From positions 18,547 to 82,546 of the forward strand of contig JAFUAA010000049.1 of assembly GCA_017460915.1 (NCBI GenBank): 64,000 nt of DNA. The letters run 5' to 3'. The first letter of the stretch is position 1. Each line of letters begins with the position of its first letter. The position numbers were made by a program, and so were the translations under genes. Under the pieces are notes generated by a model that was not told the origin of the DNA, did no database searches, and worked only from the letters and a program-made list of their open reading frames with translations. Positions 9,684 to 39,421 of the stretch are shown here, one piece after another. The stretch comes from Bacteroidales bacterium. GTDB taxonomy: Bacteria; Bacteroidota; Bacteroidia; Bacteroidales; F082.

Positions 9684-9761
9684 GGTTCGAGATTTGTTTT
9701 CAACGGCAAAAATACTGATTTTTTCGATAAAACCACTATCTTTGCGCAAAATTCTAGGACT

Positions 9762-10496: not shown

Positions 10497-10513
10497 TAGC
10501 ACTGTCTCATCGC

Positions 10514-10612
10514 AAAAAATGAGATTTTTGACATTTCCAATGAAATAAAAAGTGAGATTTTTGACATTATCGATGAAATAAAAAGAGAGATTTTTGACAA
10601 ATTTGTATTTTT
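10514..10612 (+). repeat. Three tandem ~33-bp units (core GAGATTTTTGACA) in the leader of the DUF4143 ATPase gene
   Basis: Units aaaaaatgagatttttgacatttccaatgaaat / aaaaagtgagatttttgacattatcgatgaaat / aaaaagagagatttttgacaaatttgtattttt. The last unit runs into a TAnnTTTG -7 box. Confidence 0.6.
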
Positions 10613-10636
10613 GCAGAGAATTATACAGGAATCAAG

Positions 10637-11977: not shown

Positions 11978-11995
11978 TTTAAAAGATCCAACGAT

Positions 11996-14560
11996 ATGAA
12001 AAGAATAATACCCCTGCTAATCCTTGCGCTTGCTTTCGTCGCCTGCCAGAAAGTCGAAAAGCCCAATGTCGTCGTGCAAAGCCTCAACCAAGGCTGGACG
12101 CTCACGAGCGACACCTTATCTATTAGTATTATGCCCGTCACGGTGCCTTCGGTGGTGCAGCAGAGCCTTTATGAAAACGGCATCATCCCGCATCCTTATC
12201 TCGGTACGGTGGAAAATGAACTTTTGTGGATTTCCGACCATCCTTGGGACTACACCTTGCATTTCGATGTGGACAAGGAGTTGTTTGAAAAACAGGTTGT
12301 TGAATTGGAATTTGAAGGCATCGACACCTACGCCGAAGTTTCTTTGAATAGCTATGGGCTTTTCTCTGCCGACAACCAATTCCGTGAGTGGAAAGCGGAT
12401 GTGAAGCCATTTTTGGAGGAGAAGGATAACCTTTTGGAAGTGCATTTCGTCCGTTACGACAGCACGCAAATGGCTTTGTATGAGCAACATCAGCCCCAAT
12501 TGCCTGAAAAATATGCCGTCTCGCGCAAGGCACCTTACCAACACGGCTGGGATTGGGCGCCGAAATACAAGAATGTGGGCATCTGGAAGCCTGTGAAGTT
12601 GGTGGGTTGGAACGAGGCGAGATTGGAGAACGCCTATATCGTCACGCAGGCTGCAGAAATAGGGAGAGCAGAACTGATGCTTCATTTGGATGTTGAAAGT
12701 GTTGAGGATAAAGATGTTACTGTTGAGATCGGTGCTTCGATAGGCTCGGCAACCTTATCCATTACGCAAAAGCAAAGGTCCCTGAGCTTGTCGAAGGGCC
12801 GTCAACATACAGTATTGCCTATTATCATCGACAATCCTCAATTTTGGTGGCCCAACGAAATGGGCGAACAATCGCTTTATGTCTTTGATGTAGTCCTGAA
12901 AGACGGTGATAAAATTTTGGATTTCAAGAAAATATGTTCTGGTATTAAAACCATCGAGATGGTGGATGAGCCTGACGGTATCGGTCGCGCCTTCTATTTC
13001 AAGGTGAACGACGAACCGTTTTATGCCAAAGGTGCCAACTACATCCCCGAGGAGATGATTGAGACTTGGGTCAATCCCGACAACACCTTGCGCCTGCTTC
13101 GTGAGGCCAAGGATGCGCATTTCAATATGTTGCGTGTGTGGGGCGGAGGTGTTTATCCCTCCGACGACTTCTTCAACATCTGCGATTCGTTGGGCATTAT
13201 GGTTTGGGAAGATTTCATGTACGCTGGCTCGATGTATCCCTATGATGAAGCTTTCTTGAAAAATGCCCAAATCGAGGCTGAAGAGCAGGCGAGGCGTTTG
13301 GGGGCACATCCTTCGTTGGCCTTGTGGTGCGGTGGCAACGAAATCTCGGAAGGCTACTACAACTGGGGCTGGCAACAGTCACTGAATTGGAGTGAGGAAG
13401 ACGACAAGGCCATCAAGGCGGGTTATGACCGACTCTTTGAAGACATTCTGCCTCAATCTGTTACCGATTATGATGCCACGCGACCCTACTGGTCCAGTTC
13501 GCCCTCGAAAGGCTGGGGTCGGCCCGAGAGCCTGACCGAAGGCGATGTGCATTATTGGGGCGTTTGGTGGGGCGAATTGCCTTATGAGATCTATCGCGAG
13601 AAGGTTGGCCGCTTCAACAGCGAATACGGCTACCAAAGCTATCCCGATTACCAAACCTTGCTGAAAATCGCGCAAAGCGAGGCGTTGAGCAAGGATGCTG
13701 AGGTCGTCGCGGCGCACCAAAAACACGCGCGCGGCACTCGACAGATTGACGATTTCATCCGAAAATACTATCCCTATTCCGATGATTTTGAGGAATATGT
13801 GTATTTGAGCCAACTCTCGCAGGCCTACGGCATGGAGATTGCGATTGAGGCACACCGCACGGCGAAGCCTTACAACATGGGCACGCTTTATTGGCAACTC
13901 AACGACGCTTGGCCCGTCACTTCGTGGTCGTCCATCGACTACTACGGCAACAAAAAGGCACTGCAATACAAGTTGAAGACCTTGTATGCGCCCGTGTTGC
14001 TCTCGCTTGACCCAAAAGACCACGGCGTTTTCGTGACTTCCGACTTGATGTGCGACTTGAAAGGCAACTTGAAAGTGAAAGTCGTCGATTTTGAAAGAAT
14101 AGTGCTGTTTGAAAAGGCAATGAATGTACAAGTTCCGACCAATGGCAACGAGAAATTCCAAATTGAAGGTTTGGCTGAATGTTTGGCGAAGGCCGACAAA
14201 ACAGCGGTTTATGTGAAACTTGAACTTGTTGAAAATGAAAATCTTTTGTCCGAGCGTTACTGCTATTTGGCTTATCCAAAGGACCTGAAATTGCCCAAGG
14301 CGCATCTGGAATGGAAGGTTTCGAAGGAGAACGGGCAAACCGTTATCGAAGTCAGTACGGATGCCTTTGCCAAGGAGGTGCAGGTGTATTGCACCAACGG
14401 TATGGGCGGCTTCTCGGACAATTTCTTCGACTTGGAGGCTGGGCAGACGAAGCGCATTGTTTTTGAGCCGGCCCTTCGACAGGCTCAGGGACCTAGGGCC
14501 GTTGAGCCTGTCGAAACGCCCGATTTGATGTTTGGTGTGCGCTGTCTGAATGGAATCTAA
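11996..14560 (+). CDS. GH2 beta-mannosidase, lipoprotein
   Basis: Lipobox LALAFVAC; GH2 blocks (WWPNEMGEQSLY, CGGNEISEG, GDVHYWGVWWG). Confidence 0.8.
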   Translation: MKRIIPLLILALAFVACQKVEKPNVVVQSLNQGWTLTSDTLSISIMPVTVPSVVQQSLYENGIIPHPYLGTVENELLWISDHPWDYTLHFDVDKELFEKQVVELEFEGIDTYAEVSLNSYGLFSADNQFREWKADVKPFLEEKDNLLEVHFVRYDSTQMALYEQHQPQLPEKYAVSRKAPYQHGWDWAPKYKNVGIWKPVKLVGWNEARLENAYIVTQAAEIGRAELMLHLDVESVEDKDVTVEIGASIGSATLSITQKQRSLSLSKGRQHTVLPIIIDNPQFWWPNEMGEQSLYVFDVVLKDGDKILDFKKICSGIKTIEMVDEPDGIGRAFYFKVNDEPFYAKGANYIPEEMIETWVNPDNTLRLLREAKDAHFNMLRVWGGGVYPSDDFFNICDSLGIMVWEDFMYAGSMYPYDEAFLKNAQIEAEEQARRLGAHPSLALWCGGNEISEGYYNWGWQQSLNWSEEDDKAIKAGYDRLFEDILPQSVTDYDATRPYWSSSPSKGWGRPESLTEGDVHYWGVWWGELPYEIYREKVGRFNSEYGYQSYPDYQTLLKIAQSEALSKDAEVVAAHQKHARGTRQIDDFIRKYYPYSDDFEEYVYLSQLSQAYGMEIAIEAHRTAKPYNMGTLYWQLNDAWPVTSWSSIDYYGNKKALQYKLKTLYAPVLLSLDPKDHGVFVTSDLMCDLKGNLKVKVVDFERIVLFEKAMNVQVPTNGNEKFQIEGLAECLAKADKTAVYVKLELVENENLLSERYCYLAYPKDLKLPKAHLEWKVSKENGQTVIEVSTDAFAKEVQVYCTNGMGGFSDNFFDLEAGQTKRIVFEPALRQAQGPRAVEPVETPDLMFGVRCLNGI
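12777..12800. repeat. 24-bp GC-rich repeat copy inside the GH2 gene (ggtccctgagcttgtcgaagggcc)
   Basis: 23/24 match to the reverse complement of 14470..14493; translated in frame as SLSLSKGR. Confidence 0.7.
14470..14515. repeat. GC-rich palindromic repeat at the 3' end of the GH2 gene
   Basis: ggcccttcgacaggctcagggacc, with a perfect 13-bp stem (14475..14487 / 14503..14515) and a 15-nt loop; translated as ALRQAQGPRAVEPVE. Confidence 0.7.
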
Positions 14561-14569
14561 GGATACTTT

Positions 14570-14690
14570 ACCTGCAAAAAGTTACTACGAAATTGCTAAA
14601 ACACCTGCAAAAAGTTACTATAAAAACTTGTTTTTATCTGCAAAAAGTTACTATATTTGCGGCGTAATACTTGCAAAGAGTTACTTTTGT
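14570..14690 (+). repeat. Four ~33-bp tandem units (core CTGCAAAAAGTTACT) upstream of the truncated DUF4143 paralog
   Basis: Core repeated at about 14571, 14604, 14638, plus a degenerate copy (cttgcaaagagttact) at about 14670. TAnnTTTG-like boxes lie inside the units. Confidence 0.55.
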
Positions 14691-14691
14691 T

Positions 14692-15590
14692 ATGTATAAG
14701 AGAAAGATAGTCAAGTTTTTAAGTGATTGGATTTCGAGGAGTTTTTGTGGGCGCGTGGCGTGAGCGAGTTGGCCGTTGAAACCTTGCGCGAGGCGTTTCT
14801 CAACCAGTCGCCCGTCACGAGTTTCGTGCACGAACAGATGATGAAGCATTATCGCGAGTACCTGATTGTTGGCGGTATGCCAGAAGTGGTGGTTACCTAC
14901 AATAATAATCCGGATTTTGCGGCCACTTTGTTGCAGCAACGGAAGATCATCCAAAGCTATCGCGACGACATCTCCAAGTATGCAGCCGAGCAAAAGACCA
15001 AGGCGAAGCGTTTTTTCGATGCCATTCCTTCCGAACTCAGCAAGCAGAAGAAGCGTTTCATACTGAAGAATATGGAGCAGACGGCCTCAATGCAAAAGTA
15101 TGAGGATGCGGCTTTGTGGCTCGACGATGCGGGCGTGGCTTATTTTTGCTACAACTTGCACTCCTTGGCATTGCCTTTCGAGCAGGAGGAAAACCGCAGC
15201 CTTTTCAAGGTGTATCTGCTCGACACGGGCTTGCTTTGCGCGCTGTGGAACGACAACACCCAACTCAAGGTGATGCAAGGCGAAATCGACATCAACGAGG
15301 GGGCGTTGACGGAGAATTTCGTGGCAGCCGAATTGCGCAAGCATGGGCGGAAGTTGCATTATTATAATCGCAAGAGCCGTCAGGAACTGGACTTCTTGTT
15401 GGCCGAAAATAACAAGGTGACAATAGTGGAGGTAAAGTCGGGCGACGAATACCAACGCCATGCTTCGGTGGATACGGCATTGCGCGAACAGCCGGAAAAG
15501 ATTGGTAAGGTAATGGTAATGAGCAAGTTCAATTTGGAAAAGACGGAAAACATCCTTTATGTACCTTTATATATGGCGGCATTTATATGA
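14692..15590 (+). pseudogene. DUF4143-type ATPase paralog with the P-loop domain deleted
   Basis: ATG at 14692 encodes MYKRKIVKFLSDW (compare FKRKIYDRLLKWK in 10637..11977). It then joins out of frame to DFEEFLWARG.., which aligns with residues around MDYEEFRWALG of the intact paralog. Confidence 0.6.
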
Positions 15591-15689
15591 AAATTTGAAA
15601 AAAAATCACGCCAACCTGTAACTTTTTCGCCGTTTTTCCGTATTACGGTTGTTGACACTCAAATGGGAGTACCACAATCGTCCTTATAG

Positions 15690-15778
15690 CGTCATTGCGG
15701 TTTTGACCCGCAATCCCTTGAACGCGAGGCTGTCATCTCCGCGCACAGGGGATGGCGGATGTTCCTCCGCCATGACGG
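15690..15778. repeat. Palindromic intergenic repeat, family A copy 1
   Basis: cgtcattgcgg..ttgacccgcaatc..ggcggatgttcctccgccatgacg; shares long identical blocks with 45245..45336. Confidence 0.65.
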
Positions 15779-15853
15779 TAAAAGTATTAGAGAAGTGAAG
15801 CCCGGTCAAGTGTCAAAAGTGGTAAACGGACAAACATCCAAACATCAATAAAA

Positions 15854-17332
15854 ATGAAAACAAGAATGATTTTGGCAGCCATGCTGCTGCTGGCCTTCGG
15901 AACGGTGAGGGCGCAAGTAGGTGAACCTGAAAAACAGGGACAAAAACAGGATAGCACAACGACAAGCTACACGACCGAAATGTCGCAACTCCAAGAGCAA
16001 ATCTCAGAAAGGATGCGCGAATTGGGCATGGCGCTCCAGCAACTTTCTGACTCTGTGGATTGGAAACAGTTTGAGCGCGACATGGAACAGTGGGGCGCAG
16101 AAATGGAGCAATGGGGACGAGAGATGAAAAAGAGGGGCGAGCAGTTTGAGAAGAGTTTTAACCGTCCTTTCAACGAAAGCCTACCCAAAAAAGGCAAGCC
16201 CGAAGTGAGTTCGGTCAAGGTGTGCGGCTCGGGCGACGTGCGTATTCGGCAGGTGACCGACGGCTTCTCGCTGATGCGCGGCGACAAGTTCACTTCCAAT
16301 TATGATGTGTCCGACGGTGCTGTGATTCTGATGGGTTCAAGCGACTATAAGGTTGCCATTCAGCAACTTGAAAGCCTTTATGTCACGGGTTCTGGCGATG
16401 TCTTTGGGCAGGGGATCCTCAAGGGCAAAAACCTTGCGATTTATGATTTCAGCTCGGGCGACGTGTGCATGTCGGTGGATTACGACACCATCTATGTGAA
16501 AATGAGTGGTTCGGGCGATGTTGCGCTCAGCGGGCGATGCAAGGTGCTCTATGCCGACTTGATGGGTTCAGGGGATTTGAGGATTACGCAGTTGGTATGT
16601 GGCGAGACGAACGTCACGGCCACAGGAACGGGCGAGGTGTATGATGGCAAGTCAAGAGATGTCATCTCGTATTCCAGTAATTGGAAACGGTGGCGATGTG
16701 AACGTGGCTTGTTGTTCATCCCCAACTGGCAGGGCTTTGAGGCTGGACTTAACATGCTGATGAATCCCATCGCTGACATTTATACCGATGGTGGCGGAAC
16801 GGAGGGTATGGAACTGAACCCGCTGCGTAGCTGGTATTTCGGTTTCAACATTGCCAACGTGGGCATTGCCTTCAACCGCAAGCATACAGTGGGCTTGTTT
16901 ACGGGCGTTGGCATCGGCTGGAACAACTTCAGCTGGAACAACGACGTGACCATCGAATATGACCCTGACAATGTGGTCTATACCGTGGTGCCTATCGACC
17001 ACGAAAACCCGGTCAAAAACAGCAAATACGGAGCGTTGTTTCTGCAAATGCCGCTGATGCTTGAGGTTTGTCCTGCCGGAAGTTTGTACATCGATGCTGG
17101 CGTGACGGCGGGGCTGCGCTTCGCCCAGTGGAACAAGGTGCGCTATGAGGACGGCTCGAAGGACAAGCATTATTTCTCATGGCCGCTCGACCAATTCAAG
17201 TTGGATGCCTCGTTGCGTGTTGGAGGCAGCGACCTGGGCTTCTTCGTCAATTATGCCCTGCTTCCCATCTTCAATTTCGGCAACGAAAAGGCTGCGCATC
17301 CATTGAGTTTTGGGTTCAGTATTGTTTTCTGA
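15854..17332 (+). CDS. Outer-membrane protein: DUF2807/GIN-like repeat region plus C-terminal beta-barrel
   Basis: Signal peptide; six spaced GSGD(V/L)-type motifs; C-terminal alternating beta-strand pattern ending in F. Confidence 0.55.
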   Translation: MKTRMILAAMLLLAFGTVRAQVGEPEKQGQKQDSTTTSYTTEMSQLQEQISERMRELGMALQQLSDSVDWKQFERDMEQWGAEMEQWGREMKKRGEQFEKSFNRPFNESLPKKGKPEVSSVKVCGSGDVRIRQVTDGFSLMRGDKFTSNYDVSDGAVILMGSSDYKVAIQQLESLYVTGSGDVFGQGILKGKNLAIYDFSSGDVCMSVDYDTIYVKMSGSGDVALSGRCKVLYADLMGSGDLRITQLVCGETNVTATGTGEVYDGKSRDVISYSSNWKRWRCERGLLFIPNWQGFEAGLNMLMNPIADIYTDGGGTEGMELNPLRSWYFGFNIANVGIAFNRKHTVGLFTGVGIGWNNFSWNNDVTIEYDPDNVVYTVVPIDHENPVKNSKYGALFLQMPLMLEVCPAGSLYIDAGVTAGLRFAQWNKVRYEDGSKDKHYFSWPLDQFKLDASLRVGGSDLGFFVNYALLPIFNFGNEKAAHPLSFGFSIVF

Positions 17333-17350
17333 TTGACGAGCATTTACTCC

Positions 17351-17454
17351 CGCTTCGCGTCATTGTGAACGCAGTGAAGCAATCCAGACCAAAAGCCATT
17401 GGTAAAGGCGGGTCTGGATTGCTTCGTCGTTTCTCCTCGCAATGACGCGAAGCG
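17351..17454. repeat. Palindromic intergenic repeat, family B (two nested perfect 15-bp inverted repeats)
   Basis: cgcttcgcgtcattg / caatgacgcgaagcg (outer) and gaagcaatccagacc / ggtctggattgcttc (17376..17390 / 17411..17425); lies between convergent genes. Confidence 0.7.
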
Positions 17455-17510
17455 TGTTGGCGCAAAGCGACAACCAATTCTCATAGTTCTGCGATTTCTG
17501 CGTGAAAAAT

Positions 17511-18368
17511 CTATTTCTCCATTTTCGCTTGCCAGTATTCCCGCGCATCGGCCAGATGTTCCTCCGCCCGTTGCTGCGCTTCCATCGCTATCTCGGTGGT
17601 GACGATGGCGATTTCTTGTTTGGTGCGGTGTAGCCCTGCGTTCACCAAGTCGTTGATACTGGCATAGCGTCCTTCGCTCCAACGATAAATGGTTCTGCCA
17701 ATGAAAGAAGTGGGCAATTCCTCATTCTCAAAATTGGCGTTTCCCATTGCTGCAAAAGCCCAATCCGATTCCAAACGGTAGCGAAGCATCTCCATTTTCA
17801 TTTCCAACGCGGCGTCGGGTTCGGTGGTGGCCATGCTTACGGTTTCTTTGGTCTTCAATGGCGACAACTCAGCCAAAGCTAAAGATTCGGTTTTTTCTAT
17901 GTTGGAATTTTGTGTTTTCGTTTTTTCAATAGGTTGAGATCCAATAGGTTGTGCGTTGACAAATTGAACGGTTCTTCTCGGAATGAGGCGCATCGGTTCC
18001 TCGGTGAGGTTTAGTTGGGTTTTGATAGGCTCCAGCTCGGTCAACAGCTCTTGTTTCGGCAAGGTCTCATTGGGTTTCCAAACCAGCGTGAACAATAACC
18101 CGGCAGCGGCCGCCGCCGACGCGATTTTGACGTACATCGGGATGACGGGAGCCTTGTTTCTTGAATGTCGGCCCTTTGACATTAACTTCGACTTGTCTGG
18201 GTAGGCGATTTCGGGTGCTTCCAAATGGGGCAAGTCTTCAGTGATTTCGTCCCAGTTGAGGCCTTGCGCCGCGACGAATTGCCGCAGTTCTGCCGCCCCT
18301 TCGGGGCTGAGGTTGCCCTCCGCATAATCAAGGAGGAAGGCTTCGTAGTTGTCGGTAGTGATGTTCAT
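17511..18368 (-). CDS. Anti-sigma factor (single TM)
   Basis: Start overlaps the stop of the ECF sigma gene; N-terminal anti-sigma-like segment; TM helix IASAAAAAGLLFTLVW. Confidence 0.6.
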   Translation of the reverse strand: MNITTDNYEAFLLDYAEGNLSPEGAAELRQFVAAQGLNWDEITEDLPHLEAPEIAYPDKSKLMSKGRHSRNKAPVIPMYVKIASAAAAAGLLFTLVWKPNETLPKQELLTELEPIKTQLNLTEEPMRLIPRRTVQFVNAQPIGSQPIEKTKTQNSNIEKTESLALAELSPLKTKETVSMATTEPDAALEMKMEMLRYRLESDWAFAAMGNANFENEELPTSFIGRTIYRWSEGRYASINDLVNAGLHRTKQEIAIVTTEIAMEAQQRAEEHLADAREYWQAKMEK

Positions 18369-18874
18369 GGCTCGGTGTCTATGAGGTTGTCGATGCTTTT
18401 CAGTTTGTTTTTCAGTGCGGTGCGGGCGCGGAAGATGTTCACCTTCACTTGCGCCTCGCTCATGCCCGTGATGTCGCCGATTTCCTGGTACGAGTAGCCC
18501 TCGTAGTCGCGGAGGAGGAGGGCGTTGCGTTGGGCTTCGGGCAGGTTGCCCAAGGCTTTGTGCAGGATTTCGTTGACGTCAGGGTAGTGGGGTCGCTTGT
18601 CTTTCAGTTCATTGGGCGCGATGTCGTCGATGCGTGTCGTGCGCAGGTTCTGTCGGATTTCGTCAATCATGGCGTGGTGGGCGGTGGTGAAGAGGTAGGA
18701 TTTCGCTTTGTCGAAATCCACCGTCTCGACCTTTTCCCAAACGCGGGCAAAGCTCTCCTGCACCACGTCCTCGGCCTGCTCGCGGTTGCGGAGGCTCGAG
18801 AACGCGAAGCGGAAAAGCCTGTCGGCGTATTGCTCCACGCATCGGTTGTACTGACTTCTGTCCATCGTTTGCAA
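18365..18874 (-). CDS. ECF-type RNA polymerase sigma-70 factor
   Basis: Region 2 (DVVQESFARVW) and region 4 HTH (YSYQEIGDITGMSEAQVKVNIFRAR). Confidence 0.85.
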   Translation of the reverse strand: MQTMDRSQYNRCVEQYADRLFRFAFSSLRNREQAEDVVQESFARVWEKVETVDFDKAKSYLFTTAHHAMIDEIRQNLRTTRIDDIAPNELKDKRPHYPDVNEILHKALGNLPEAQRNALLLRDYEGYSYQEIGDITGMSEAQVKVNIFRARTALKNKLKSIDNLIDTEP

Positions 18875-18924
18875 AGGTAATACGGAGTTTTGGGAAAAAA
18901 GTTACACTTGACAAAGAATTTTTT

Positions 18925-18990
18925 TGTTTTATAATCGCAAAAACGAATTGTACACAATTCTAAAATGAATCGTACAAAAAAAACGAAAAG
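18925..18990. repeat. Candidate transposase-binding end (R-end equivalent)
   Basis: tgtacacaattctaaaatgaatcgtacaaaaaaaacgaaaag; ACGAATTGT at about 18943..18951 recurs inverted at about 38311..38319. Confidence 0.35.
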
Positions 18991-19024
18991 TGGGCGCGTC
19001 GGATTCTCCTCGATGCGCCCACTT
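18974..19024 (-). terminator. Rho-independent terminator after the last gene of the element
   Basis: 10-bp stem aagtgggcgc / gcgcccactt, followed on the - strand by a T-run. Confidence 0.65.
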
Positions 19025-19027
19025 CGC

Positions 19028-19537
19028 TTATAAGCCCTCTTTGCGGTCGAATGTCGCGTATTTATTCTGCTGCTTCACTTCGCGTTTAAGCCCTATTTTA
19101 AGGCTGCTTAAACAGCGTTCAAGGGTGCGACAAAGGGCTGGAATTATGTCACGCTCATAGAACTGCCTCGGCTTGATTGTGTGGTCAATCTTGACTATTT
19201 CCTGCTCACAGATATTGCCCGTGTCAAGACCTTCATCAGCCCAGAACCATGTCGCAGCGGTCACGGCTTCATTCCTTTTGTAGGCCCACTTGATGGATGC
19301 CGCACCGCGTCCATACGGCAACGGTGACGGATGAAAGATGAGCGTCCCGAAGCGAGGCTCTTTGATAACATCAGTCGGGATTTTCTCCGTCAGCAATGGC
19401 GCGATGTTCAGGTCTATCTCCATGCCTGGCAGATACTCCATCGAATCATGGAACACCGTGCAACCGCATCTTTCCACGACCTCCTTCGCGGCGATATACG
19501 CCTGTGTTGTGGTCTGTCCTAATATCCTCACTAACAT
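19028..19537 (-). CDS. Formyltransferase-fold protein (catalytic domain only, 169 aa)
   Basis: LIFHPSPLPYGRGAASIKW ... ADEGLDTGNI matches the Fmt/PurN HxSLLPxxRG ... DxGxDTG core. The Asn normally two residues before the His is absent. Confidence 0.6.
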   Translation of the reverse strand: MLVRILGQTTTQAYIAAKEVVERCGCTVFHDSMEYLPGMEIDLNIAPLLTEKIPTDVIKEPRFGTLIFHPSPLPYGRGAASIKWAYKRNEAVTAATWFWADEGLDTGNICEQEIVKIDHTIKPRQFYERDIIPALCRTLERCLSSLKIGLKREVKQQNKYATFDRKEGL

Positions 19538-20670
19538 AGTTCCTGGTCTCCTATATATTCAAACCCTTGTACCGCCCTGAAATGGCCGCCAAAGCCACCG
19601 CTCCCGTGTTTCATGCCGCCATTGATTGCCGACCGGCTGAGCGTCTTGATGGACTTGCTTTTGTCGGCGAACTTCAGCGCACCGCTTACCTGCACCCATT
19701 TGGACGACTTGCGCAGGGCACGGCATAGTTGCGGATGCGAGGTGTGGAACAATGTGGTGTACTTGCGCCCACACCGCCCTTGGCCCTCAAGATGGAGCCT
19801 GCACACCTCATTCAGGAAGGCCGTGCCCACACCTATGCCCTGCCACTCTGGTAAGACTACCAAACGAGTTGCCCGATAGTGCCCGCCCTGAAACATGGGA
19901 CATACTGCCAAATGCGCCACAGGCTCGTCACCGGCAAAGCAGATGAAATACTGGGCCGCGATGGGCATGGGCAGATCTAAATAGTAATGCGGCTTAAAAT
20001 AACCCCATCGCGTTCCCGGAACCCGATAAATTGAGAGTTCGATTTCAGGTCTTTGCCGAAGGCAGTCGCGGGTGTAGAACCGCGCCTCGTTTGTGTTGTA
20101 CACCCAATCGGGTTGCAGCCACTCAATCACATCAAAGTGGGGAGTGAGCAGGACAATTTTGCCTTTGCCGCGCCTCCAGCTCTTTGCGAAGGCCGCCGCG
20201 CCTATCTTGGCAATCTGGCGGTCAATTACACTGGTAAACTCGTCCACGACCGCGATTTCAGGGTGTTCGCACACAAGGCGGGCCAGACCTGCGCGGAACT
20301 GCTCGCCATTTGAAAGCACTTTGAAGGGTCGGAGCCATGCCGGGACATCGCCAAGACCGACAGCAGACAACGCGCCGGTCACGGTGTTGAAGTCGCCATC
20401 GGGACAGATGTCGTCGATGATGGGACGGTCTTCGTGCCATCCGGCATAAAGGTCGTAGAGCGGAACGCCCGGAAACATCGCCTTTCCGATGCTGCTCTTT
20501 CCGCTTCCCGACCTCCCGACGATGAGGCCAATTTGCCAGTCCATGTTCTCGATGGGCAGTTCTGCCGCGTGCTGCCATTGGTAGCCCGTTTCGGCGTTGA
20601 ACAGGGACTTCACGCGCTCTGCCCTGTAGCTGGTGAAGTCCTCACAGGTGTGGTTGATTTCGATTCTCAT
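19531..20670 (-). CDS. ABC-type ATPase fused to a C-terminal GNAT acyltransferase domain
   Basis: Walker A GRSGSGKSS, signature-like LSNGEQ, Walker B IAVVDEF, H-loop LLTPH; C-terminal GNAT motif A (RLVVLPEWQGIGVGTAF). Confidence 0.65.
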   Translation of the reverse strand: MRIEINHTCEDFTSYRAERVKSLFNAETGYQWQHAAELPIENMDWQIGLIVGRSGSGKSSIGKAMFPGVPLYDLYAGWHEDRPIIDDICPDGDFNTVTGALSAVGLGDVPAWLRPFKVLSNGEQFRAGLARLVCEHPEIAVVDEFTSVIDRQIAKIGAAAFAKSWRRGKGKIVLLTPHFDVIEWLQPDWVYNTNEARFYTRDCLRQRPEIELSIYRVPGTRWGYFKPHYYLDLPMPIAAQYFICFAGDEPVAHLAVCPMFQGGHYRATRLVVLPEWQGIGVGTAFLNEVCRLHLEGQGRCGRKYTTLFHTSHPQLCRALRKSSKWVQVSGALKFADKSKSIKTLSRSAINGGMKHGSGGFGGHFRAVQGFEYIGDQELC

Positions 20671-20810
20671 ACCGTTACAACTTTAAGTTTTAGACCAAGG
20701 TTCAATTCCTTCAGACGATTGAACGTGTCGATCTGGTTCTGCTCGTCTGTGCACATTACCACAATGCCGTATTGCGGGTGGTAGGTGTAGCTTTTCTTCT
20801 TGTTTTCCAT
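20667..20810 (-). CDS. 47-aa ORF translationally coupled (ATGA overlap) to the ATPase-GNAT gene
   Basis: Hand translation gives MENKKKSYTYHPQYGIVVMCTDEQNQIDTFNRLKELNLGLKLKVVTV; too short for the ORF track. Confidence 0.35.
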   Translation of the reverse strand: MENKKKSYTYHPQYGIVVMCTDEQNQIDTFNRLKELNLGLKLKVVTV

Positions 20811-20872
20811 CTTTGTATGTATTAGGTTGTCTTTTTTTGTCTATTTTTGCGGTCTCCTACATTTACAAAAAT

Positions 20873-20927
20873 AAGGTGCCACAACACCGAGAGGCATACG
20901 GCCTCTGCCGTGGTGTTGTGGCACCTT
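20873..20927 (-). terminator. Long branched hairpin (16-bp outer stem, 6-bp inner stem) between the LysM gene and the modification-like module
   Basis: aaggtgccacaacacc (20873..20888) pairs with ggtgttgtggcacctt (20912..20927). Inner stem agaggc/gcctct. Short T-run follows on the - strand. Confidence 0.45.
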
Positions 20928-20990
20928 TGTCATTGTCGGGGGTAGGAGCCCGACTTTGGAGGCGGGGGCCTTTTCTATGCCCTGCCAGTT

Positions 20991-21206
20991 TTATGCTGTG
21001 GCAGGTACTACGCCGTGTTCGGCATAGTACCTCACCACTTTCTTGTTTTCCACTTCAGGAACAATGATTGTTTCGCCAGTCTTGGGTTGACTGGTCGGCA
21101 GAAGGCCGTTGAGTGCGGCCATATCAAGTGCCGCTTCTGCCGTGCCGCAATGCTGCACCGCGATGTCCCAAAGGGATTGTCCCGATTGTACAGTTATCGT
21201 CTTCAT
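20991..21206 (-). CDS. LysM-domain protein (71 aa)
   Basis: TVQSGQSLWDIAVQHCG..ALDMAALNG LysM-like pattern; its start shares one base with the stop of the upstream ORF. Confidence 0.55.
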   Translation of the reverse strand: MKTITVQSGQSLWDIAVQHCGTAEAALDMAALNGLLPTSQPKTGETIIVPEVENKKVVRYYAEHGVVPATA

Positions 21207-21439
21207 CAGCTTTGGGGGTTGTCGTCGATTGTATTTGGATCAGTCGCTTGATAGGGTGTGGCGGCCATGTACAACAAACCTGTAAGCACCGGCTCGCCCG
21301 TGGACTCGAAGGCAACCCAGCCGAAACCGGCCAGATCTTCACCGACGAATGCACCTATGTAAAGAAGGCAGGAAGGGACGTGGAGCACTTCGTCTTGAAA
21401 ACGATGTGGAAAGAGAACTTCAATTGGGCATTGGAGCAT
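21206..21439 (-). pseudogene. Possible 5'-truncated gene fragment upstream of the LysM gene
   Basis: High-GC 77-aa ORF coupled to the LysM start. Its 5' end collides with a low-GC + strand gene at about 21.40 kb. Confidence 0.25.
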
Positions 21440-21754
21440 GTCAGAGGAAATCCCGTCAGGAATCCCGGTATCGAAGAGGAAATCAACATCTCAAGACGAG
21501 GCATCAAGGAGTTCCTGAATCAAAACCATGACGATTATCTTGCAAAAAACGAAATGATTCGACACATTTCTGACATATTAAGCAAGGCCGAGTATATGGG
21601 GGAAACCATGTACAACGGTAGAGTTTCCAAGATATTCAGGACTCAGTTATGCGGCAAGGACAACTATATCATCGTGAACTATAACGACGAAGGAGAACTC
21701 AACCTGTACAGCATCACAACAAGCCCGAAAGTTCTGGTGGATATAAAGAAATAA
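21404..21754 (+). CDS. Low-GC hypothetical protein (116 aa), possibly a PBECR/barnase-like nuclease fold
   Basis: Start set at the ATG where composition drops. The C-terminal pattern KIFRTQLCGKDNYIIVNYNDEGELNLYSITT resembles small phage toxin/nuclease domains (weak, by eye). Confidence 0.3.
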   Translation: MWKENFNWALEHVRGNPVRNPGIEEEINISRRGIKEFLNQNHDDYLAKNEMIRHISDILSKAEYMGETMYNGRVSKIFRTQLCGKDNYIIVNYNDEGELNLYSITTSPKVLVDIKK

Positions 21755-21837
21755 GCCATCCAAACTGCCTCGTGGAACTACAATCCACGCTCTCGTTTGA
21801 ATGACTTACGACTGCAAAAATACAAAACTTTTGAATA

Positions 21838-22356
21838 ATGCAACAAAAAACTGAAAAAAAAATGACACCTGAACAATTCCAGCAGCGCATCCACGAAATG
21901 AGGGAACAGTTCGGCGAACTCTTCGACCGCTATGGCCTCATGATCGTGGGCAACGTGGCCGTCAGCTGGTTCAAGAAGAACTTCCAGAACCAGGCATGGG
22001 GCCGCATCAAGTGGAAGGAGGTGCAACGCCGCACACCTGGCACCAAGGCCAACACCTATGCCGCCAAGCACCACCCGGCCCAAACCACCCGCAAGATACT
22101 CACCGGCGACACCGGCGACCTGGGCCGATCCATCGAAATCCGTGAGGCCGCCAACGGAACTGTCACCATCTGGACAAACCCGTCCACATTCGGCTCAAAG
22201 GAACCCTACGGGCGCGTTCACAACGAGGGCCTCCGCGCAGGGCGCGGCAGCGGCTTCACCATGCCCCGCCGCCAGTTCATGGGCGAACACCCAGAACTCA
22301 ACGAACTTATTGTCAAAAAACTTGAAGAAAAACTCAATCAAATCGCACAGCAATGA
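21838..22356 (+). CDS. Virion morphogenesis / head-tail completion protein (Mu G / HK97 gp10-like)
   Basis: ILTGDTGDLGRSI ... YGRVHNEG ... MPRRQFMG pattern typical of this family. Confidence 0.55.
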   Translation: MQQKTEKKMTPEQFQQRIHEMREQFGELFDRYGLMIVGNVAVSWFKKNFQNQAWGRIKWKEVQRRTPGTKANTYAAKHHPAQTTRKILTGDTGDLGRSIEIREAANGTVTIWTNPSTFGSKEPYGRVHNEGLRAGRGSGFTMPRRQFMGEHPELNELIVKKLEEKLNQIAQQ

Positions 22357-22934
22357 TTAAATACCTCTATCTCGAACTCGAAAAGAAGCTTCTCGCCATC
22401 AACGACGAACAACCCAAGCCAAGGCCCGTGTTCAAACATTGCGACCTCTGGAACCGTCAGGTCGAGTTCCTTGAGAAGGAAACGCCCTTCCAAACGCCTG
22501 CCGTATTCGTCGAGTTCCCCAACGAAATCCAGTGGCGCACCGATGGCCAACACATTCAGGATGCCGACCTCACTATCTGCCTTCATATCGTCACACCATG
22601 GTACGCCAACACCGCAGCCGATGTGATTGACAAGAAAGTCCGCGCCATCGCGTTGGAATACCTTGACATCCCCACTGTCCTGTTCCGGCAGCTCCACGGG
22701 CAACACGGAACCGTCGAGGACAACAGCGACGACCCGCGAAACCCGAAAGTCATCGGCAACTTCAACGCCCTCACCCGTACCGCGTCCCGTGTCAACCACG
22801 ACCATGAGCGGTTTGTCGACAGCATAGAGACCTACCAATGCCACCTGAAGGATCTCTCATACAAGGTGGCCACCTTCGCCGTTGACACGGTCAACCTCGC
22901 CATCGAATTCGACCCGCATCCGGGACAATCCTAA
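22353..22934 (+). CDS. Hypothetical phage structural (neck/tail-completion-like) protein
   Basis: Start overlaps the stop of the preceding gene; no recognisable motif. Confidence 0.3.
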   Translation: MIKYLYLELEKKLLAINDEQPKPRPVFKHCDLWNRQVEFLEKETPFQTPAVFVEFPNEIQWRTDGQHIQDADLTICLHIVTPWYANTAADVIDKKVRAIALEYLDIPTVLFRQLHGQHGTVEDNSDDPRNPKVIGNFNALTRTASRVNHDHERFVDSIETYQCHLKDLSYKVATFAVDTVNLAIEFDPHPGQS

Positions 22935-24274
22935 TCCCCGGTCGTGATATACTCCATCTGGTTCGTGCTGCCCTTGAAGATGTAGCCGCATTGGTTCTCA
23001 ATCTCCATCTCTTCCAAGGGCAGCATGTTCTGTTTCCCAAAGGTCTTTTCTGCCATTGTCATAAACTCCACAATGTACATGTAGCTGCCGTGGAACTCGA
23101 AAGCCTTCATCCTTCCTGTCGGGTTGCCCTCCTCGTCCTTTTCCTCGATACCGATGAGACACTTGATCCAGTTCGGCGTTCCCTTGTTGTCGCTTTTGAT
23201 GTCATAATCATAGATAGTGAACTGTTTCCCCGCCAAGTCTTTTGGGTTCACATTGGGAGCGTCAAGGCTCCTGTTGATTCTGATTTTCTGCGTTAATTCT
23301 CTGAGTTTCATTTTCTGTTCTATTTTCTTCATTAGGTTGTAGCCGTCCGCATGGCGCAGAAGGCCGTAATAGCTCGCCCACGAGTCGTCCTTCTTGCATC
23401 GTGAGGCGCGGGCGCGTATGTTCTGACGGAGCGTCGTGTAACCCTTGTTGTGGTCGGCAACGTCCTTGTCAGGGTTACGGCGGACAATATAGCCGCAAAA
23501 CGACACCTCCTTGGTCAGCGGTTGCAGCCTGATGGCCGATGCCTTGGCCCTGATCTGCAACTTGTACCACCAGAAGTTCTGCACCCGCCATTTCAGTTGG
23601 TTGGCATCCTCCCGTGTATAGGTGGCAAAGATGCAGTCGTCAGCGTAGCGTGTCGAAAACGGTGCCGCCTGTTTGCTCCACTGGTCAAACTCAAGCATGA
23701 CAATGTGGTGCATCAGCGGCGAGGTCGGCGTTCCGATAGGCAGGCGGCCTTCCACGAAGCCTACCGTAATCCCAAACTCCACCAGTTCCCGGTCATTCGT
23801 CAGCTTGCGGAACTCTCTGCGGAAAACCTTGGGCGTGATGTGGTCGTAGCATTTCCGCTGGTCTATGATGACACAATAGTGCAGGTCGCGCCGATCATAC
23901 ACCACACGCTTCAGCCGTCGGATGACAGAGTTTTTCCTATTTGATGAGGTGATGCCGCAGCCGTGCTTGCAGTTGATGCCGTTTTTGTTGTCGTGCCAGT
24001 CGTAATATGGTTTGGCCAACAGGATGAAAAGATACTGCAAAACAAAGGTGAAAAGCAAGGGGCTGTCTATCTTGCGCTCCTTGCCGTTGGGGTTCCGCTT
24101 GGTGAGTTTCCTGTATTTGAGATGCTTTTTGTACCCGCCATTGGCTATCGATGCCATGACGGACTTGGCATAGGCTTCCGCGTTGGCCACCATGCGCTCC
24201 ACCTCTTTTTTATTGGAGTGGCCTTTGGCCGCATTGGTCATCGCGGCAAGCACTATGTCCTTTGTCACTTTCAT
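22931..24274 (-). CDS. DGR reverse transcriptase (447 aa) with C-terminal extension
   Basis: RT motifs GKERKID, VIIDQRKCYDHI, LPIGTPTSP, RYADDCIF (YADD), VSFCGYIV; lies 145 nt downstream of the TR on the same strand. Confidence 0.9.
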   Translation of the reverse strand: MKVTKDIVLAAMTNAAKGHSNKKEVERMVANAEAYAKSVMASIANGGYKKHLKYRKLTKRNPNGKERKIDSPLLFTFVLQYLFILLAKPYYDWHDNKNGINCKHGCGITSSNRKNSVIRRLKRVVYDRRDLHYCVIIDQRKCYDHITPKVFRREFRKLTNDRELVEFGITVGFVEGRLPIGTPTSPLMHHIVMLEFDQWSKQAAPFSTRYADDCIFATYTREDANQLKWRVQNFWWYKLQIRAKASAIRLQPLTKEVSFCGYIVRRNPDKDVADHNKGYTTLRQNIRARASRCKKDDSWASYYGLLRHADGYNLMKKIEQKMKLRELTQKIRINRSLDAPNVNPKDLAGKQFTIYDYDIKSDNKGTPNWIKCLIGIEEKDEEGNPTGRMKAFEFHGSYMYIVEFMTMAEKTFGKQNMLPLEEMEIENQCGYIFKGSTNQMEYITTGD

Positions 24275-24419
24275 GGCTCAAATTCAAGTTTGAGCAGTCG
24301 GCAAGCATCGGGCATCTCAGCCCAACCTTGCCACCGGCCTCCAATATCCACCGGCTGGTCTTGTATGTCTGCCGCTTCTGGGCACGGGTGACGGGCGCAT
24401 TCTTTTTCTCTTTGCTCTA

Positions 24420-24537
24420 AACTTTAGCAGAACCGCAATAGTAGCTGTTCGTATTGCCAGCGGAGTTGTTCGCATTCAGATACCGCGCCGACAGATTGCT
24501 GTTGTTCGCGTTGTTGCCTGAACGGACACCGACTCGC
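24420..24537 (-). repeat. DGR template repeat (TR), 118 bp
   Basis: Gap-free alignment to 24753..24870 with 9 mismatches, all at TR adenines (coding strand). Rich in AAC codons in the VR frame. Confidence 0.9.
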
Positions 24538-24644
24538 CCATCACCCTCGTTCCACATTAAGGGAACTTTGTCCTCGCGCCTTCAGAGGTCTCGGTCACTA
24601 TGCCGGACTTGGACGCTACGACGCGGCAAAAATAGCGTTTTTCC

Positions 24645-24683
24645 TTTTTCAAAAACAAAAAAAAACCGCCCCATAGGGCGGTT
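24645..24683 (-). terminator. Rho-independent terminator downstream of the DGR target gene
   Basis: Stem aaccgccc / gggcggtt (24664..24683), followed on the - strand by a long T-run. Confidence 0.6.
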
Positions 24684-24691
24684 GTGTGAGC

Positions 24692-24708
24692 GGGCCATTG
24701 CATGGCCC
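24692..24708 (-). promoter_or_regulatory. GC-rich hairpin just downstream of VR (candidate DGR target-recognition hairpin)
   Basis: gggccat tgc atggccc: 7-bp stem, 3-nt loop, about 45 nt 3' of the VR end. Confidence 0.35.
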
Positions 24709-24734
24709 TTGCAGCCGTTGCACGGGGTTGCACC

Positions 24735-27700
24735 CTATTGCAGTCTCCATCGAACTTGAGCAGAACCGCAAGAGTAGCTGAACGTATTGCCAGCGGAGGT
24801 GTACGCATTCAGATACCGCGCCGACAGATTGCTGTTGTACGCGTAGGTGCCTGAACGGACACCGACTCGCGTCTTCTTGCCTGCCGCGCCCCAGTTGTTT
24901 TGCACGTAGCAGTAGCCGCAATCGCCTTTCTGGTAGGATGCACCCAAGGCTGCCGGCAACGGCGTGTGGGGCAGTCGGCGACGGGCATAGCCGTTGGCCA
25001 CCGTGACAATGCTGCCCGCCAGCGCGTATTTGTCCTCGAAGGCATACTTCTCACCGATGTTGATGGCGTATCTGCTTTCATTCACCCATTGTTCCTGTTC
25101 GGGTTCCACGTACACCTTCAGCTCGTGTCCGAAGCTGCCCGATGCAGGCGAGGTCTCGCATTGGCCCACAATCTCGCAGCCACCGCCCCAATAGGGGCCG
25201 CCGTCGCCGCTCATGTCGCAGCCAAGCATCAGGCCCGTGCGGACGCAAACCTCTATCTCGTAGTCGGTCGTCTCCGTCGCGCTTGCACTGGCATAGCCCG
25301 TGAACGTGCCTGTCACAATCTTGTACACACGGCAATTCATCTCGCCATCGGCCACGGTCTTCGGCGCAAACGTGCCCGCTTGGGTCGGGTTCTCGTAACG
25401 CCATTCGTGGCCGTTGAAAAGGAAACGCTCGCCTGCCGCGATGCCGAACTCCACAGCGAACGACACCGCAATCTGGGCCTCGAGGGTCTTGCTCAGAGGG
25501 CCGTAGCTGCTCAGCCAGTTGCTCGCGTTGGTCGTGCTCTTTGTTTCGCCCGTGCCATAGTAGATGCCAGTGCTGGCCGAGAATGCACGATAGGCCCAAA
25601 CGTCCGAGCCAACGGCTTTGTAACGCATACCGCCGTTGGCTTCCCATGTGGCCTCGCTGTTGCAGGCATCGACGCTCGACACGCCGCTGCCGAATCTCGA
25701 TGCAATGCACAGGTTCTTCGTCCCAAAGGCCGTCTCCACGCAGCGAAGGAAGGTGTTCCTGGCGTGGTAGCCGCCTTCGGACACGGGCAACGGCGAAGTG
25801 GTGTCATGGTTGTTGTTGCGTGCCCTGGTCATCGTACCAATCTGGCTGATGTTGTTGGTGCGGTAGTGGCCGTTCTCGCGGAACATCCTGCATCCCGAGG
25901 CTCCGGCGTTGCCTTTGGAGTAGGTGTCGGCAGCGGGGTAGTTGAAGAAGAACGGGCGCAGTTTGTTCAAACCGTCCTCGGCGATGCTCGTCGGGGGTGA
26001 TGGGCAGATGCCCGTGGGCTTCAGCGCAAAGGTCTTCACGTCCACCCCGTCCCAAACGTTGGCGTTTGCGCCCAGAATGCCGTTCCATTCCTTGCCGCTG
26101 GAGCCAACGACGTTGTCGAGCAGGTACACTTCATCCTTGCGGCCCACGAAGACACCGTATTTAGTCTCGGTGGTCTCCCATGGCTTCAGGTAGTGGCCCA
26201 CCTCGGTGTCCACGGCCTTGTAGAGCGTCGGATGCGTCATCCGTTTCACGCTGTCCACAGTCTCGATCGAGCACAGTTTCAGGAACGCCACGGGGTCGAA
26301 AGCTCCGGCGGCGCAGTATTGCTCGGTGCAGGCCGCGTCGGTGTAGAGCGCGTTGGCCATGCACTCGTCGCGCATCGCCTCGGTGATGCCCACCACAGGC
26401 GCGAAATTGCCGTGAATGTCACGCAGCCAGTTGTTTTTCCGCAGTTCCTTGCCGGTCTTGACGGTTTCGCCATCCACGGCGGTCATGTCGACCAGCCCGG
26501 GCCGCCAATCCTCAGCCCAGTCGCGGTTGCCTATGACGGCCATTGCGTCGGGGTTGTCTTGGTCGGCGGGGCTGGCGGTGTGGGCGTTGTCGAGCCATGC
26601 GCCCACGCAGTATAGCGGCTTGGCGTACTCGCTCTCCTCAAACTGCTCCTTCAGGTCCTTGAAGGCGTTGGCCAAGGCCCTCATCGTGTCCTTGAAGCCG
26701 CGCATGTAGCTGATCACGATGGTGCCCGTGGCCTCGTTGCCTCCCACCACCTCTTCAGTGCCCATGTCGTCGGCGGGTTTGCCCGTCGGGTCGATGTTGT
26801 GTGTGCCGGTGATTGGCGTTGCCATCTGGTAGTCGACGTATTTACCTGCGAAGGCGATGGAAGGGGTGATTTGCTCCGCACTGTCGTAGACGAGCGTCAG
26901 CCCGTCGAGGGTCATGCCTTCCACGTCCGGGCGGATGAGGCCGTCGCGAAGGGCCGCGTAGGTGCCCGAGGTCGGCAACGAAGCCGTGTAGCGGTAGCCA
27001 TTTGTGGCCTCGCCTTCGCCTTCCACTATCTCGCCCTCGATTTCGGTCTCTGTCCATGTCAGGCCGGTCAGCAGCTGCTGGGCAATGTTGCGCTCGTAGG
27101 TGCCGCCACCCTCGGCATAGATGACGATGCGGTCGAAGATGCCGCCGTTGCCATGCTCAATGCCACGGAGAACGAGACAGGTCTTACCGTTGATGGTCTC
27201 CGTGTCGAACTTGCTCGTAAGGGCCGACACAGCCAAGACAAGCTCCACCGGGGCCACATATTCCTTGAACACATCGTACTCCTTGCTCCATGCCAGGTGT
27301 GCCGAAATGTCAGCCAAGGTTGCAGAGGCCGCAACCTCCACAATCATATAGCCCTCGTCGGGCAGGTAGAAGCGTTCCGTATGGCCCGCGAAGGTGTGCT
27401 CCGTCACGACGGCCACTTCACTGCCTGAAGCGGGGAGCGTGGCACAATACCACACGCCCACGATGGTACCGTCGCCCGCCTTCAGGTTGTTCCCGTTGCG
27501 GTCGGTCAGCAGGTAGCCGTTGTTCTTTTCAGCCGTGCCCCAGGCACCAGCCTCGCATTTCGGGCAGCGGATGATGCACAGCTTGTTCGTGCCGCTGCCG
27601 ATGGTGCCGTTAGCCACGGCCCCGGTCAGGTAGCCGCTCGTCTTACCGGCTGCCCATGCCTCCGGGTCGAGTTGGTTCGCACCGTTCCAACGCAGCGCGT

Positions 27701-38398: not shown

Positions 38399-38436
38399 TC
38401 GAAAAAAGTCTTATTTTTGCCGAAAAATTTGACATC

Positions 38437-39348: not shown

Positions 39349-39421
39349 ATTGGGAAACACAAAATGAAAACCAGCGTTTGGAATTTCCGAACGCTGGTTT
39401 TGTTTTGGGATTTTAATAACG

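Follow-up and report, generated by a model that had tools for sequence, protein, structure and literature searches.

Fusions of an ABC ATPase to a GNAT acyltransferase (ABC-GNAT proteins), associated with ParB, were reportedly predicted to form a system by Iyer, Zhang, Burroughs and Aravind (2013). Iyer et al. 2021 restate an earlier prediction of their own, in which the ABC-ATPase-GNAT fusion adds an acyl modification, itself uncharacterised, to a DNA base, and cite the Tenacibaculum jumbo phage pT24 as a phage that encodes one (PMC7824862). Mom is likewise a GNAT-fold enzyme, and acylates the N6 position of adenine in DNA (PMC7824862). More recently, a phage ParB that lacks a DNA-binding domain was found to activate a neighbouring DNA-modifying dioxygenase on double-stranded DNA, an activation that needs both the N-terminal and the C-terminal domain of ParB (2026, PMC13229309). 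Here we describe a three-gene operon at positions 19028–20810 of a 64,000-nucleotide stretch (the window) of contig JAFUAA010000049.1, from a rumen Bacteroidales bacterium, where a Mu-like prophage carries it at its right end. The operon is a new version of this computationally predicted kind of phage DNA-modification system: its ParB partner is reduced to a tail, a formyltransferase of the 10-formyl-tetrahydrofolate dehydrogenase (FDH) type has been added, and it sits where Mu has mom.

An earlier reading of this DNA from its letters alone (the sequence-only reading) did not recognise the combination of domains as a described system. That view does not hold for the ABC-GNAT fusion, which had been predicted (PMC7824862), and the trio had been noted in Burkholderia phage phiE255, where gp28-30 were left unexplained in 2010 with a guess at transport (PMC2920897). 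It does hold at the level of experiment, since our literature searches found no experimental characterisation of the ABC-GNAT family and no experimental study of the module; the three-gene set recurs in relatives, as expected of an uncharacterised conserved module. The open reading frames (ORFs) were also placed correctly, and all three are on the minus strand. The 5ʹ gene (20667–20810) encodes a protein of 47 amino acids (aa), the middle gene (19531–20670) the 379-aa ABC-ATPase-GNAT fusion, and the last gene (19028–19537) a 169-aa protein of formyltransferase fold. The stop codon of the small ORF and the ATG of the 379-aa ORF share the letters ATGA (TCAT on the plus strand, 20667–20670), and 7 nt (ATGTTAG) belong to both the 379-aa and the 169-aa ORF. 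Both overlaps argue for translational coupling of all three ORFs.

What is the 47-aa protein? It had been taken for a leader ORF, a description that gives way to homology with the C-terminal domain of ParB-like partners. A hidden Markov model (HMM) built from 41 such small ORFs matches the extreme C-termini of ParB-like proteins encoded immediately 5ʹ of ABC-GNAT genes, with scores of 59 bits for gp1 of Gordonia phage NHagos, 61.6 bits on an IMG/VR contig (L028) and 20.8 bits for gp85 of phage Jace. The common motif, ..hhVxCxdExeQ...L...G..KVhxh-COOH (alignment A6), forms one beta-alpha-beta unit and is found in partners from proteobacteria, planctomycetes, actinobacteria and two archaea; the 47-aa protein is itself beta-alpha-beta and ends ...KLKVVTV-COOH. 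In 66 of 79 diverse genomic loci the C-terminal domain is encoded directly upstream of ABC-GNAT, the partner usually being a protein of 170–230 aa with a ParB_N domain at its N-terminus and the small-ORF domain at its end. Moreover, several natural fusions run ParB-N, small-ORF domain and ABC-GNAT in that order. Together, the HMM matches, the alignment, the upstream positions and the fusions indicate that the 47-aa ORF is a stand-alone copy of the ~40-residue C-terminal domain of the ParB-like partner, that is, a detached tail. It also matches phrog_28816 (E 3e-11), contains a single Cys, and is present as a protein in all 77 of the close viral loci that we examined. The partner slot 5ʹ of ABC-GNAT is occupied here by the ParB C-terminal domain only, whereas relatives have full-length ParB partners, and a local HMM search of the window found no ORF for a ParB N-domain. 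We also considered the canonical ParB C-terminal dimerisation domain as an identity for the small ORF and rejected it: a profile search of the PDB gave marginal, unrelated matches only, so the homology is limited to phage and prokaryotic ParB-like partners and does not extend to chromosomal ParB.

The 379-aa protein almost certainly belongs to the ParB/ABC-GNAT family. Pfam assigns it ABC_tran (E 3e-7), Acetyltransf_7 (E 5e-6) and Acetyltransf_1 (E 2e-5), all above the gathering cut-offs, and phrog_11143, a PHROGs family of unknown function, covers its whole length (E 8e-141). Homologues include proteins of pT24 (38.6% identity, E 7e-37), of the Leptospira phages LE3 and LE4 and of Streptococcus phages. 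The family is large, with 5344 proteins matched in an indexed search and 2753 clusters at 50% identity with E<1e-3, and its range takes in Planctomycetota, Proteobacteria, Actinobacteria, Bacteroidota, phages of Firmicutes, and archaea. The ABC nucleotide-binding domain (NBD; residues ~1–200, nt 20071–20670, minus strand) has the Walker A motif GRSGSGKSS (residues 52–60, nt 20491–20517, minus strand), the signature LSNGEQ (residues 119–124), the Walker B motif VVDEF (residues 141–145) and the H-switch H178; the GNAT domain (residues ~203–379, nt 19534–20064, minus strand) has the CoA loop Q277-G-I-G-V-G282. The full motif set claimed for the fusion is accordingly seen in Pfam, PHROGs, fold models and invariant motifs, but no clear Q-loop glutamine is visible in the sequence of the protein. 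The helical subdomain of the ABC domain is short. Walker A, the signature, the D-E of Walker B, the D-loop, the H-switch and Q-x-x-G-x-G are invariant in close and distant homologues (alignments A1 and A3); hence the ATPase and the acyl-CoA transferase activities should both be live.

A full-length AlphaFold2 model (pLDDT 76) has an N-terminal half that resembles transporter-type ABC NBDs. The full-length fold search was swamped by NBDs of ABC transporters, and residues 203–379 were therefore modelled separately. The result is a classical GNAT fold that matches SpeG, RimI, PaiA and GCN5 with a TM score of ~0.55, and among viral models those nearest to it come from Leptospira and Enterococcus phages and belong to the same family; a sequence-profile search of the GNAT domain against the PDB gave nothing significant. 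Outside the canonical GNAT core the protein has a glycine-rich C-terminal tail, GGFGGHFRAVQGFEYIG (residues ~350–379, nt 19534–19620, minus strand), which does not vary among close relatives and in which an Arg and a Phe are conserved family-wide. Other identities were set aside. The protein is neither a terminase nor a known housekeeping protein, an outcome that the sequence-only reading had named as fatal to its case: it contains no terminase domain, and true genes for TerS and TerL follow ABC-GNAT as separate genes. A known anti-phage defence system is also rejected, as PADLOC returned only a 39-residue ABC-motif match to mad3 (31 bits), with no match to the 47-aa or the 169-aa protein.

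The 169-aa protein is a formyltransferase domain, as had been proposed, with neither the Asn two residues before the catalytic His nor a tRNA-binding domain. Pfam assigns it Formyl_trans_N (PF00551; E 2.7e-14, 53.8 bits against a cut-off of 26.1), and phrog_9240 matches it with an E of 1e-19. The best PDB match is to FDH. A profile of the family scored 104 bits against the FDH N-domain in the PDB (E 8e-29), against 57 for Fmt, 50 each for ArnA and HypX and 34–46 for GART, and the 169-aa sequence on its own scored 69.6 bits against FDH, the next match being 38.7. The NCBIfam models for fmt (43 bits against 201) and PurN (21 against 150) fall far under their cut-offs. His69 (nt 19331–19333, minus strand), Ser71 and Asp105 (nt 19223–19225, minus strand) are invariant in alignment A2. 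The missing Asn had been read as a departure from the usual; the residue at this position is Ile in 72 family members, Gly in three and Asn in none, and FDH too has Ile there (IIYHPS). Since FDH and the phage family all lack Asn at this site, its absence is best read as a signature of the FDH-type subfamily, not as a defect. The N-terminal subdomain is cut to ~35 residues, and the protein ends at the equivalent of FDH residue ~202, without the C-terminal OB/tRNA-binding domain. We found no phosphopantetheine carrier or aldehyde-dehydrogenase domain in the protein or elsewhere in the operon. We therefore assign the 169-aa protein to the FDH N-domain type, which places it, as far as homology can tell, closest to the enzymes of thiol-directed formyl transfer. 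The FDH domain moves formyl from 10-formyl-tetrahydrofolate to the thiol of 4ʹ-phosphopantetheine by means of His-Ser-Asp, and the homologous domain of HypX has been proposed to make formyl-CoA (Muraki et al. 2019, PMC6802093).

The genes are strongly linked in relatives, and a co-occurrence survey, which had been suggested as a check, bears this out. Among the 66 of the 77 close loci with at least 450 bp 3ʹ of ABC-GNAT, 65 have a formyltransferase there, to be set beside a small ORF in all 77. One IMG/VR contig (3300029332_000310; L078) is the sole close relative that has 2 kb downstream but no formyltransferase. One database protein (P0043) is a fusion of ABC-GNAT with the formyltransferase. 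The trio also occurs in Burkholderia phage phiE255 (gp28-30) and Pseudomonas phage Komp_PAO1_1, in both of which it sits 3ʹ of the tail-fibre genes, in Porphyromonas phages, where it ends the genomes of P. gingivalis phages, and in Gordonia phage NHagos, where ParB, ABC-GNAT and formyltransferase stand directly 5ʹ of the terminase. The more distant loci differ: none of the 79 diverse family loci has a formyltransferase, so that this gene appears to be an add-on to a ParB/ABC-GNAT core. In these distant loci, as in phages of Pasteurella, Leptospira, Streptococcus and Gordonia, the genes for small and large terminase follow directly after the core. The site just ahead of the terminase is where phages typically keep DNA methylases and further genes for late modification.

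A second accessory set is seen in phage Jace (L012, 6110–7218), where the core is followed by genes for an aspartate decarboxylase (PanD) and a truncated CoA-transferase-like protein, which at its N-terminus scores 34 bits with family-III CoA-transferases (cut-off 23.3). The set recurs in unrelated lineages: the pair stands beside ABC-GNAT in Alsobacter and Gemmataceae (loci including L150/L179, L161 and L178), and the CoA-transferase-like gene does so in Hyphomicrobium. Judged by gene content, the set looks like one for beta-alanyl-CoA synthesis. In Streptococcus phage 315.4 (L013, 4962–6466) ABC-GNAT is seemingly split, its parts being annotated apart and aligned as two pieces by tblastn. 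An ASCH-domain gene follows the split ABC-GNAT in streptococcal prophages; ASCH proteins are N4-acylcytosine amidohydrolases.

The module was said to lie at the mom-equivalent end of its element, and we confirm this. The element is Mu-like, with a Mu-type transposase (phrog_310, E 1e-34), a MuB-type ATPase with a Phage-MuB_C domain, GemA and Gam. An identical module is present on two metagenome contigs, one with the same host site (L005) and one with a different flank (L007), and the sequences part at window position 18930. Because contigs with the same phage and different flanks diverge at this point, we place the right end of the prophage at ~18930, at a host junction beside an ECF sigma-factor gene and 98 bp from the formyltransferase stop. 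A related Bacteroidales metagenome-assembled genome from roe-deer rumen (L183) has the empty site, in which window positions 18182–18907 are joined to 38398–42530 and the ECF sigma gene adjoins lgt. The insert therefore runs from ~18930 to ~38385, the left end being approximate because it is placed from the empty site alone. No exact 11-mer is common to the two prophage ends, and an 18-mer search for terminal repeats with three mismatches returned the right end itself only. The module is the final operon before the right end of a transposable phage, the same position as in phiE255 and the Porphyromonas phages. In a whole-element megablast against phage records, the ABC-GNAT gene gave the sole match, at 71% to a Porphyromonas phage.

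How might the three proteins act together? We tentatively favour a reading in which the operon encodes a three-part N-acylation machine that works most likely on the phage's own DNA and probably with a formyl group. The FDH-type enzyme would transfer the formyl of 10-formyl-tetrahydrofolate to the pantetheine thiol of coenzyme A, yielding formyl-CoA, and the GNAT domain would use formyl-CoA for N-formylation of the exocyclic amino group of a base. ABC ATPase domains form dimers with ATP, working as a clamp or a power stroke; in this machine the ParB tail would bridge or position them, and they would engage DNA and use ATP in offering bases to the GNAT site. The modification would be made late in infection, and the base mark would shield the DNA of progeny phages against nucleases of the host, much as Mu is protected by Mom. 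The setting of the genes is that of late operons, directly 5ʹ of the terminase genes in other phages and 3ʹ of the tail-fibre genes in Mu-like phages. DNA is probably the target of the ABC-GNAT machine, since the partner is almost always of the ParB type. It is also quite possible that the formyltransferase supplies formyl-CoA to the GNAT domain, a relay supported by the likeness to FDH, the gene coupling in 65 of 66 loci, the P0043 fusion and the parallel with PanD and CoA-transferase. The sequence-only reading had offered nucleobase or aminoacyl-tRNA modification: the nucleobase remains the best-supported guess, and for the aminoacyl-tRNA alternative we found no support.

Several observations weigh against this reading. 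The ParB N-terminal domain, which is required in the ParB-activator system that has been tested, is absent from the window. The ABC domain is like transporter NBDs in the fold search and unlike Rad50, SMC or MutS, and the GNAT domain is generic, resembling neither Mom nor the enzymes that make N4-acetylcytidine (ac4C) in RNA in any special way. The active-site residues of GNAT are much alike in the clades with and without a linked formyltransferase; hence no change in the pocket argues for a different donor. We know of no GNAT that uses formyl-CoA, which is chemically labile, as are nucleobases with an N-formyl group. Enzymes of the formyltransferase fold mostly act on amines, and the FDH likeness of the 169-aa protein could reflect ancestry only. 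The match of the Jace protein to CoA-transferases spans only ~90 N-terminal residues. Lastly, the operon here may be a relic, the prophage having lost its head and tail genes, although the module ORFs are intact and identical to those of the intact prophage copy on L005 despite that loss.

An explanation that keeps the DNA target is that the ParB tail and ABC-GNAT acylate DNA with an ordinary host acyl-CoA, e.g. acetyl-CoA, and that the formyltransferase is a classical amine N-formyltransferase, the acceptor of which could be a second base or an amino group on the moiety attached by GNAT. Amine formylation is what the Formyl_trans_N fold is best known for, most family members (all those in the 79 diverse loci) do without a formyltransferase, and the residues of the GNAT pocket are the same with and without one. 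We nonetheless consider this explanation unlikely: the Asn of amine formyltransferases is missing from every member (72 Ile, 3 Gly), the thiol-directed FDH domain is the best match by ~45 bits, the N-terminal subdomain that binds the acceptor is reduced to ~35 residues, and the parallel variant with PanD and CoA-transferase points to synthesis of a donor. It is similarly improbable that the target is something other than DNA, such as an RNA (tRNA or rRNA), a host protein, ribosomal or not (as part of host takeover), or a packaging or virion protein of the phage. The nearly constant presence of a ParB-type partner points to DNA, a pre-terminase or mom-site position fits phage DNA methylases and modification genes, and none of the three proteins has a tRNA-binding domain. 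To be set against these points are the closest working ATPase-GNAT analogue, TmcA/NAT10, which acts on RNA; the soluble ABC-F ATPases, which bind ribosomes and whose NCBIfam models match the 379-aa protein weakly; the ASCH gene near ABC-GNAT in Streptococcus phage 315.4, given that ASCH proteins include N4-acylcytosine and tRNA ac4C hydrolases; and the presence of the protein acetyltransferases RimI and HP0935 among the GNAT fold matches.

Two further explanations depart more widely from an acylation machine. The small ORF could be an independent regulator or anti-defence protein (a Com-like activator, a leader peptide or an anti-CRISPR), as its overlap with the next gene, resembling that of com with mom, and the label “acr candidate” in Porphyromonas phage records might suggest. 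We regard this as very unlikely, because the small ORF is homologous to the C-terminal domain of ParB partners, is fused in front of the ABC domain elsewhere and is kept as a protein in every close locus; a single Cys, moreover, does not allow for a zinc finger of the Com type. Alternatively, the genes might be a metabolic or transport moron that benefits the lysogen, pairing the ATP-binding subunit of an ABC transporter with a formyltransferase of the purine pathway. Database names (“ABC transporter ATP-binding protein” and “phosphoribosylglycinamide formyltransferase”) lean this way, as did the 2010 paper on phiE255 (PMC2920897). However, neither the operon nor the loci of relatives encode a membrane or permease partner, the helical subdomain that couples NBD to permease is shortened, NCBIfam transporter models score at most 35 bits against cut-offs of 130–900 (and PurN 21 against 150), and the strict linkage to ParB and terminase would be left unexplained. 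We judge a moron to be extremely improbable.

Returning to the favoured reading, N-acylation of phage DNA by the ParB tail, ABC-GNAT and the FDH-type enzyme, we also put forward a bolder and somewhat doubtful proposal: that N-formylated bases, made by an FDH-type/ABC-GNAT relay, occur in the DNA of Mu-like phages of Bacteroidota, of phiE255-like phages and of Gordonia Sourvirus phages, and that the family is a modular acylation platform. The Mu-like hosts would be gut, rumen and oral Bacteroidota, and the formylated exocyclic amine would be on A, C or G. Accessory genes would pick the acyl group: acetyl where there is none, formyl with the formyltransferase, and beta-alanyl with PanD and CoA-transferase.

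Signals for expression are found on either side of the operon. A long perfect hairpin with a U-run (20873–20927, minus strand; −40.2 kcal/mol, z = −7.1 by RNA folding, and flagged by the terminator scan too) marks the end of the preceding late LysM/tail transcription unit. Directly 3ʹ of the formyltransferase stop is an intrinsic terminator (18976–19029, minus strand), a hairpin then UUUUCGUUUUUUUU, with a folding energy of −26.4 kcal/mol and z = −4.0; 0 of 200 shuffles were equally stable. The Bacteroidetes −7 promoter consensus is TAnnTTTG. Past the first hairpin and 56 nt 5ʹ of the first ATG, that of the small ORF, the box TATTTTTG (20866–20873, minus strand) can be read as a candidate −7 element of this type, possibly a chance match. 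As terminators bracket the genes and the TATTTTTG box follows the first hairpin, the three-gene module is predicted to be a self-contained transcription unit of its own. Elsewhere, a perfect 12/12 match to the sigma-70 consensus (TTGACA-16-TATAAT; 18908–18935, plus strand) spans the host-phage junction, with the −35 in host DNA and the −10 in the phage terminus, and faces the phage interior, in antisense to the module genes. The match probably means nothing, since Bacteroidales hosts use another promoter consensus.

The rest of the prophage is rearranged. It is internally deleted and inverted, being identical to the intact copy on L005, which has tail genes, from 9531 to 21299, and switching at 21299/21300 to inverted head-morphogenesis genes (LPD3 and Phage_tail_S; 21113–22934, plus strand). 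No capsid, portal, terminase or tail genes are left within the ~19.5 kb prophage, and the same deleted and inverted arrangement is found on an independent metagenome contig (L004). A complete diversity-generating retroelement occupies 22931–27938 on the minus strand, with the variable repeat (24753–24870, 118 nt) at the 3ʹ end of a 1067-aa ORF, followed by the template repeat (24420–24537) and the reverse transcriptase (22931–24274). The two repeats differ at nine positions, all nine at template adenines. In the early region, a 147-aa ORF (31025–31468, minus strand) has weak matches, below cut-off, to nucleoside 2-deoxyribosyltransferases (E 1e-3) and might be a further gene for nucleotide metabolism or modification.

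What would a system of this kind mean? The family is large and widespread in bacteria and archaea and in phages of Porphyromonas gingivalis, Streptococcus pyogenes, Burkholderia and gut and rumen Bacteroidales, and it has been a computational prediction only for more than 10 years. If DNA is acylated, N-acyl or N-formyl bases would be a new chemical class of DNA marks, with a bearing on phage escape from restriction and other defences, on artefacts of sequencing and base-calling, and on tools for enzymatic DNA labelling; an N-formyl group on the exocyclic amine of A, C or G is not among the DNA modifications described so far. The ParB-tail “leader”, the thiol-directed FDH-type formyltransferase and the sister variant with PanD and CoA-transferase each give rise to concrete biochemical hypotheses, and the system is worth experiment because cultured phages (phiE255, NHagos and Jace) carry family members.

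The closest described system is the predicted ParB/ABC-GNAT system, with which the operon shares a fused ABC and GNAT protein, homologous to that of pT24, and the signature of a ParB-type partner. It differs in that the partner here is only the last ~40 residues of ParB, in the addition of an FDH-type formyltransferase, found in none of the 79 diverse loci, and in its location at the mom position of Mu, not before the terminase. As with com-mom of Mu, the operon is the last at the right end of a transposable phage, 3ʹ of tail-fibre genes, and has a small upstream ORF that overlaps the gene of a GNAT-superfamily enzyme. In contrast, the small ORF here is a ParB tail where Mu has the Com zinc finger, and Mom has neither an ATPase nor a formyltransferase. 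Pfam, PHROGs and NCBIfam gave no match to the Mom family, Mom was absent from the 50 best hits, PDB or viral, in the fold search with the GNAT domain, and a Mom-like GNAT is rejected for want of any sequence likeness or special fold likeness.

The formyltransferase resembles the N-domain of FDH/ALDH1L1, its best PDB match, in the His-Ser-Asp set and in the non-Asn residue two before the His. Unlike FDH and HypX, the phage protein is free-standing and 169 aa long, with a shortened N-terminal subdomain and no OB subdomain, and has no carrier, aldehyde-dehydrogenase or decarbonylase domain. TmcA/NAT10 fuses an ATP-hydrolysing domain to a GNAT domain and makes N4-acetylcytidine, thereby acylating an exocyclic base amine in RNA. 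Its ATPase is of the helicase type and its substrate tRNA or rRNA, whereas the ATPase here is of the ABC type; beyond the GNAT fold, no homology of the 379-aa protein to TmcA/NAT10 was detectable. Finally, 5mYOX176/ParB176 is similar in having a ParB accessory gene beside that of a DNA-modifying enzyme, near the terminase, and in requiring the C-terminal domain of ParB. The enzyme there is a thymine dioxygenase of the Fe/2-oxoglutarate type, not an ATPase-acyltransferase, and the ParB N-terminal domain that it requires is missing here. By analogy, ParB176 offers a working precedent for ParB as the accessory of a DNA-modifying enzyme.

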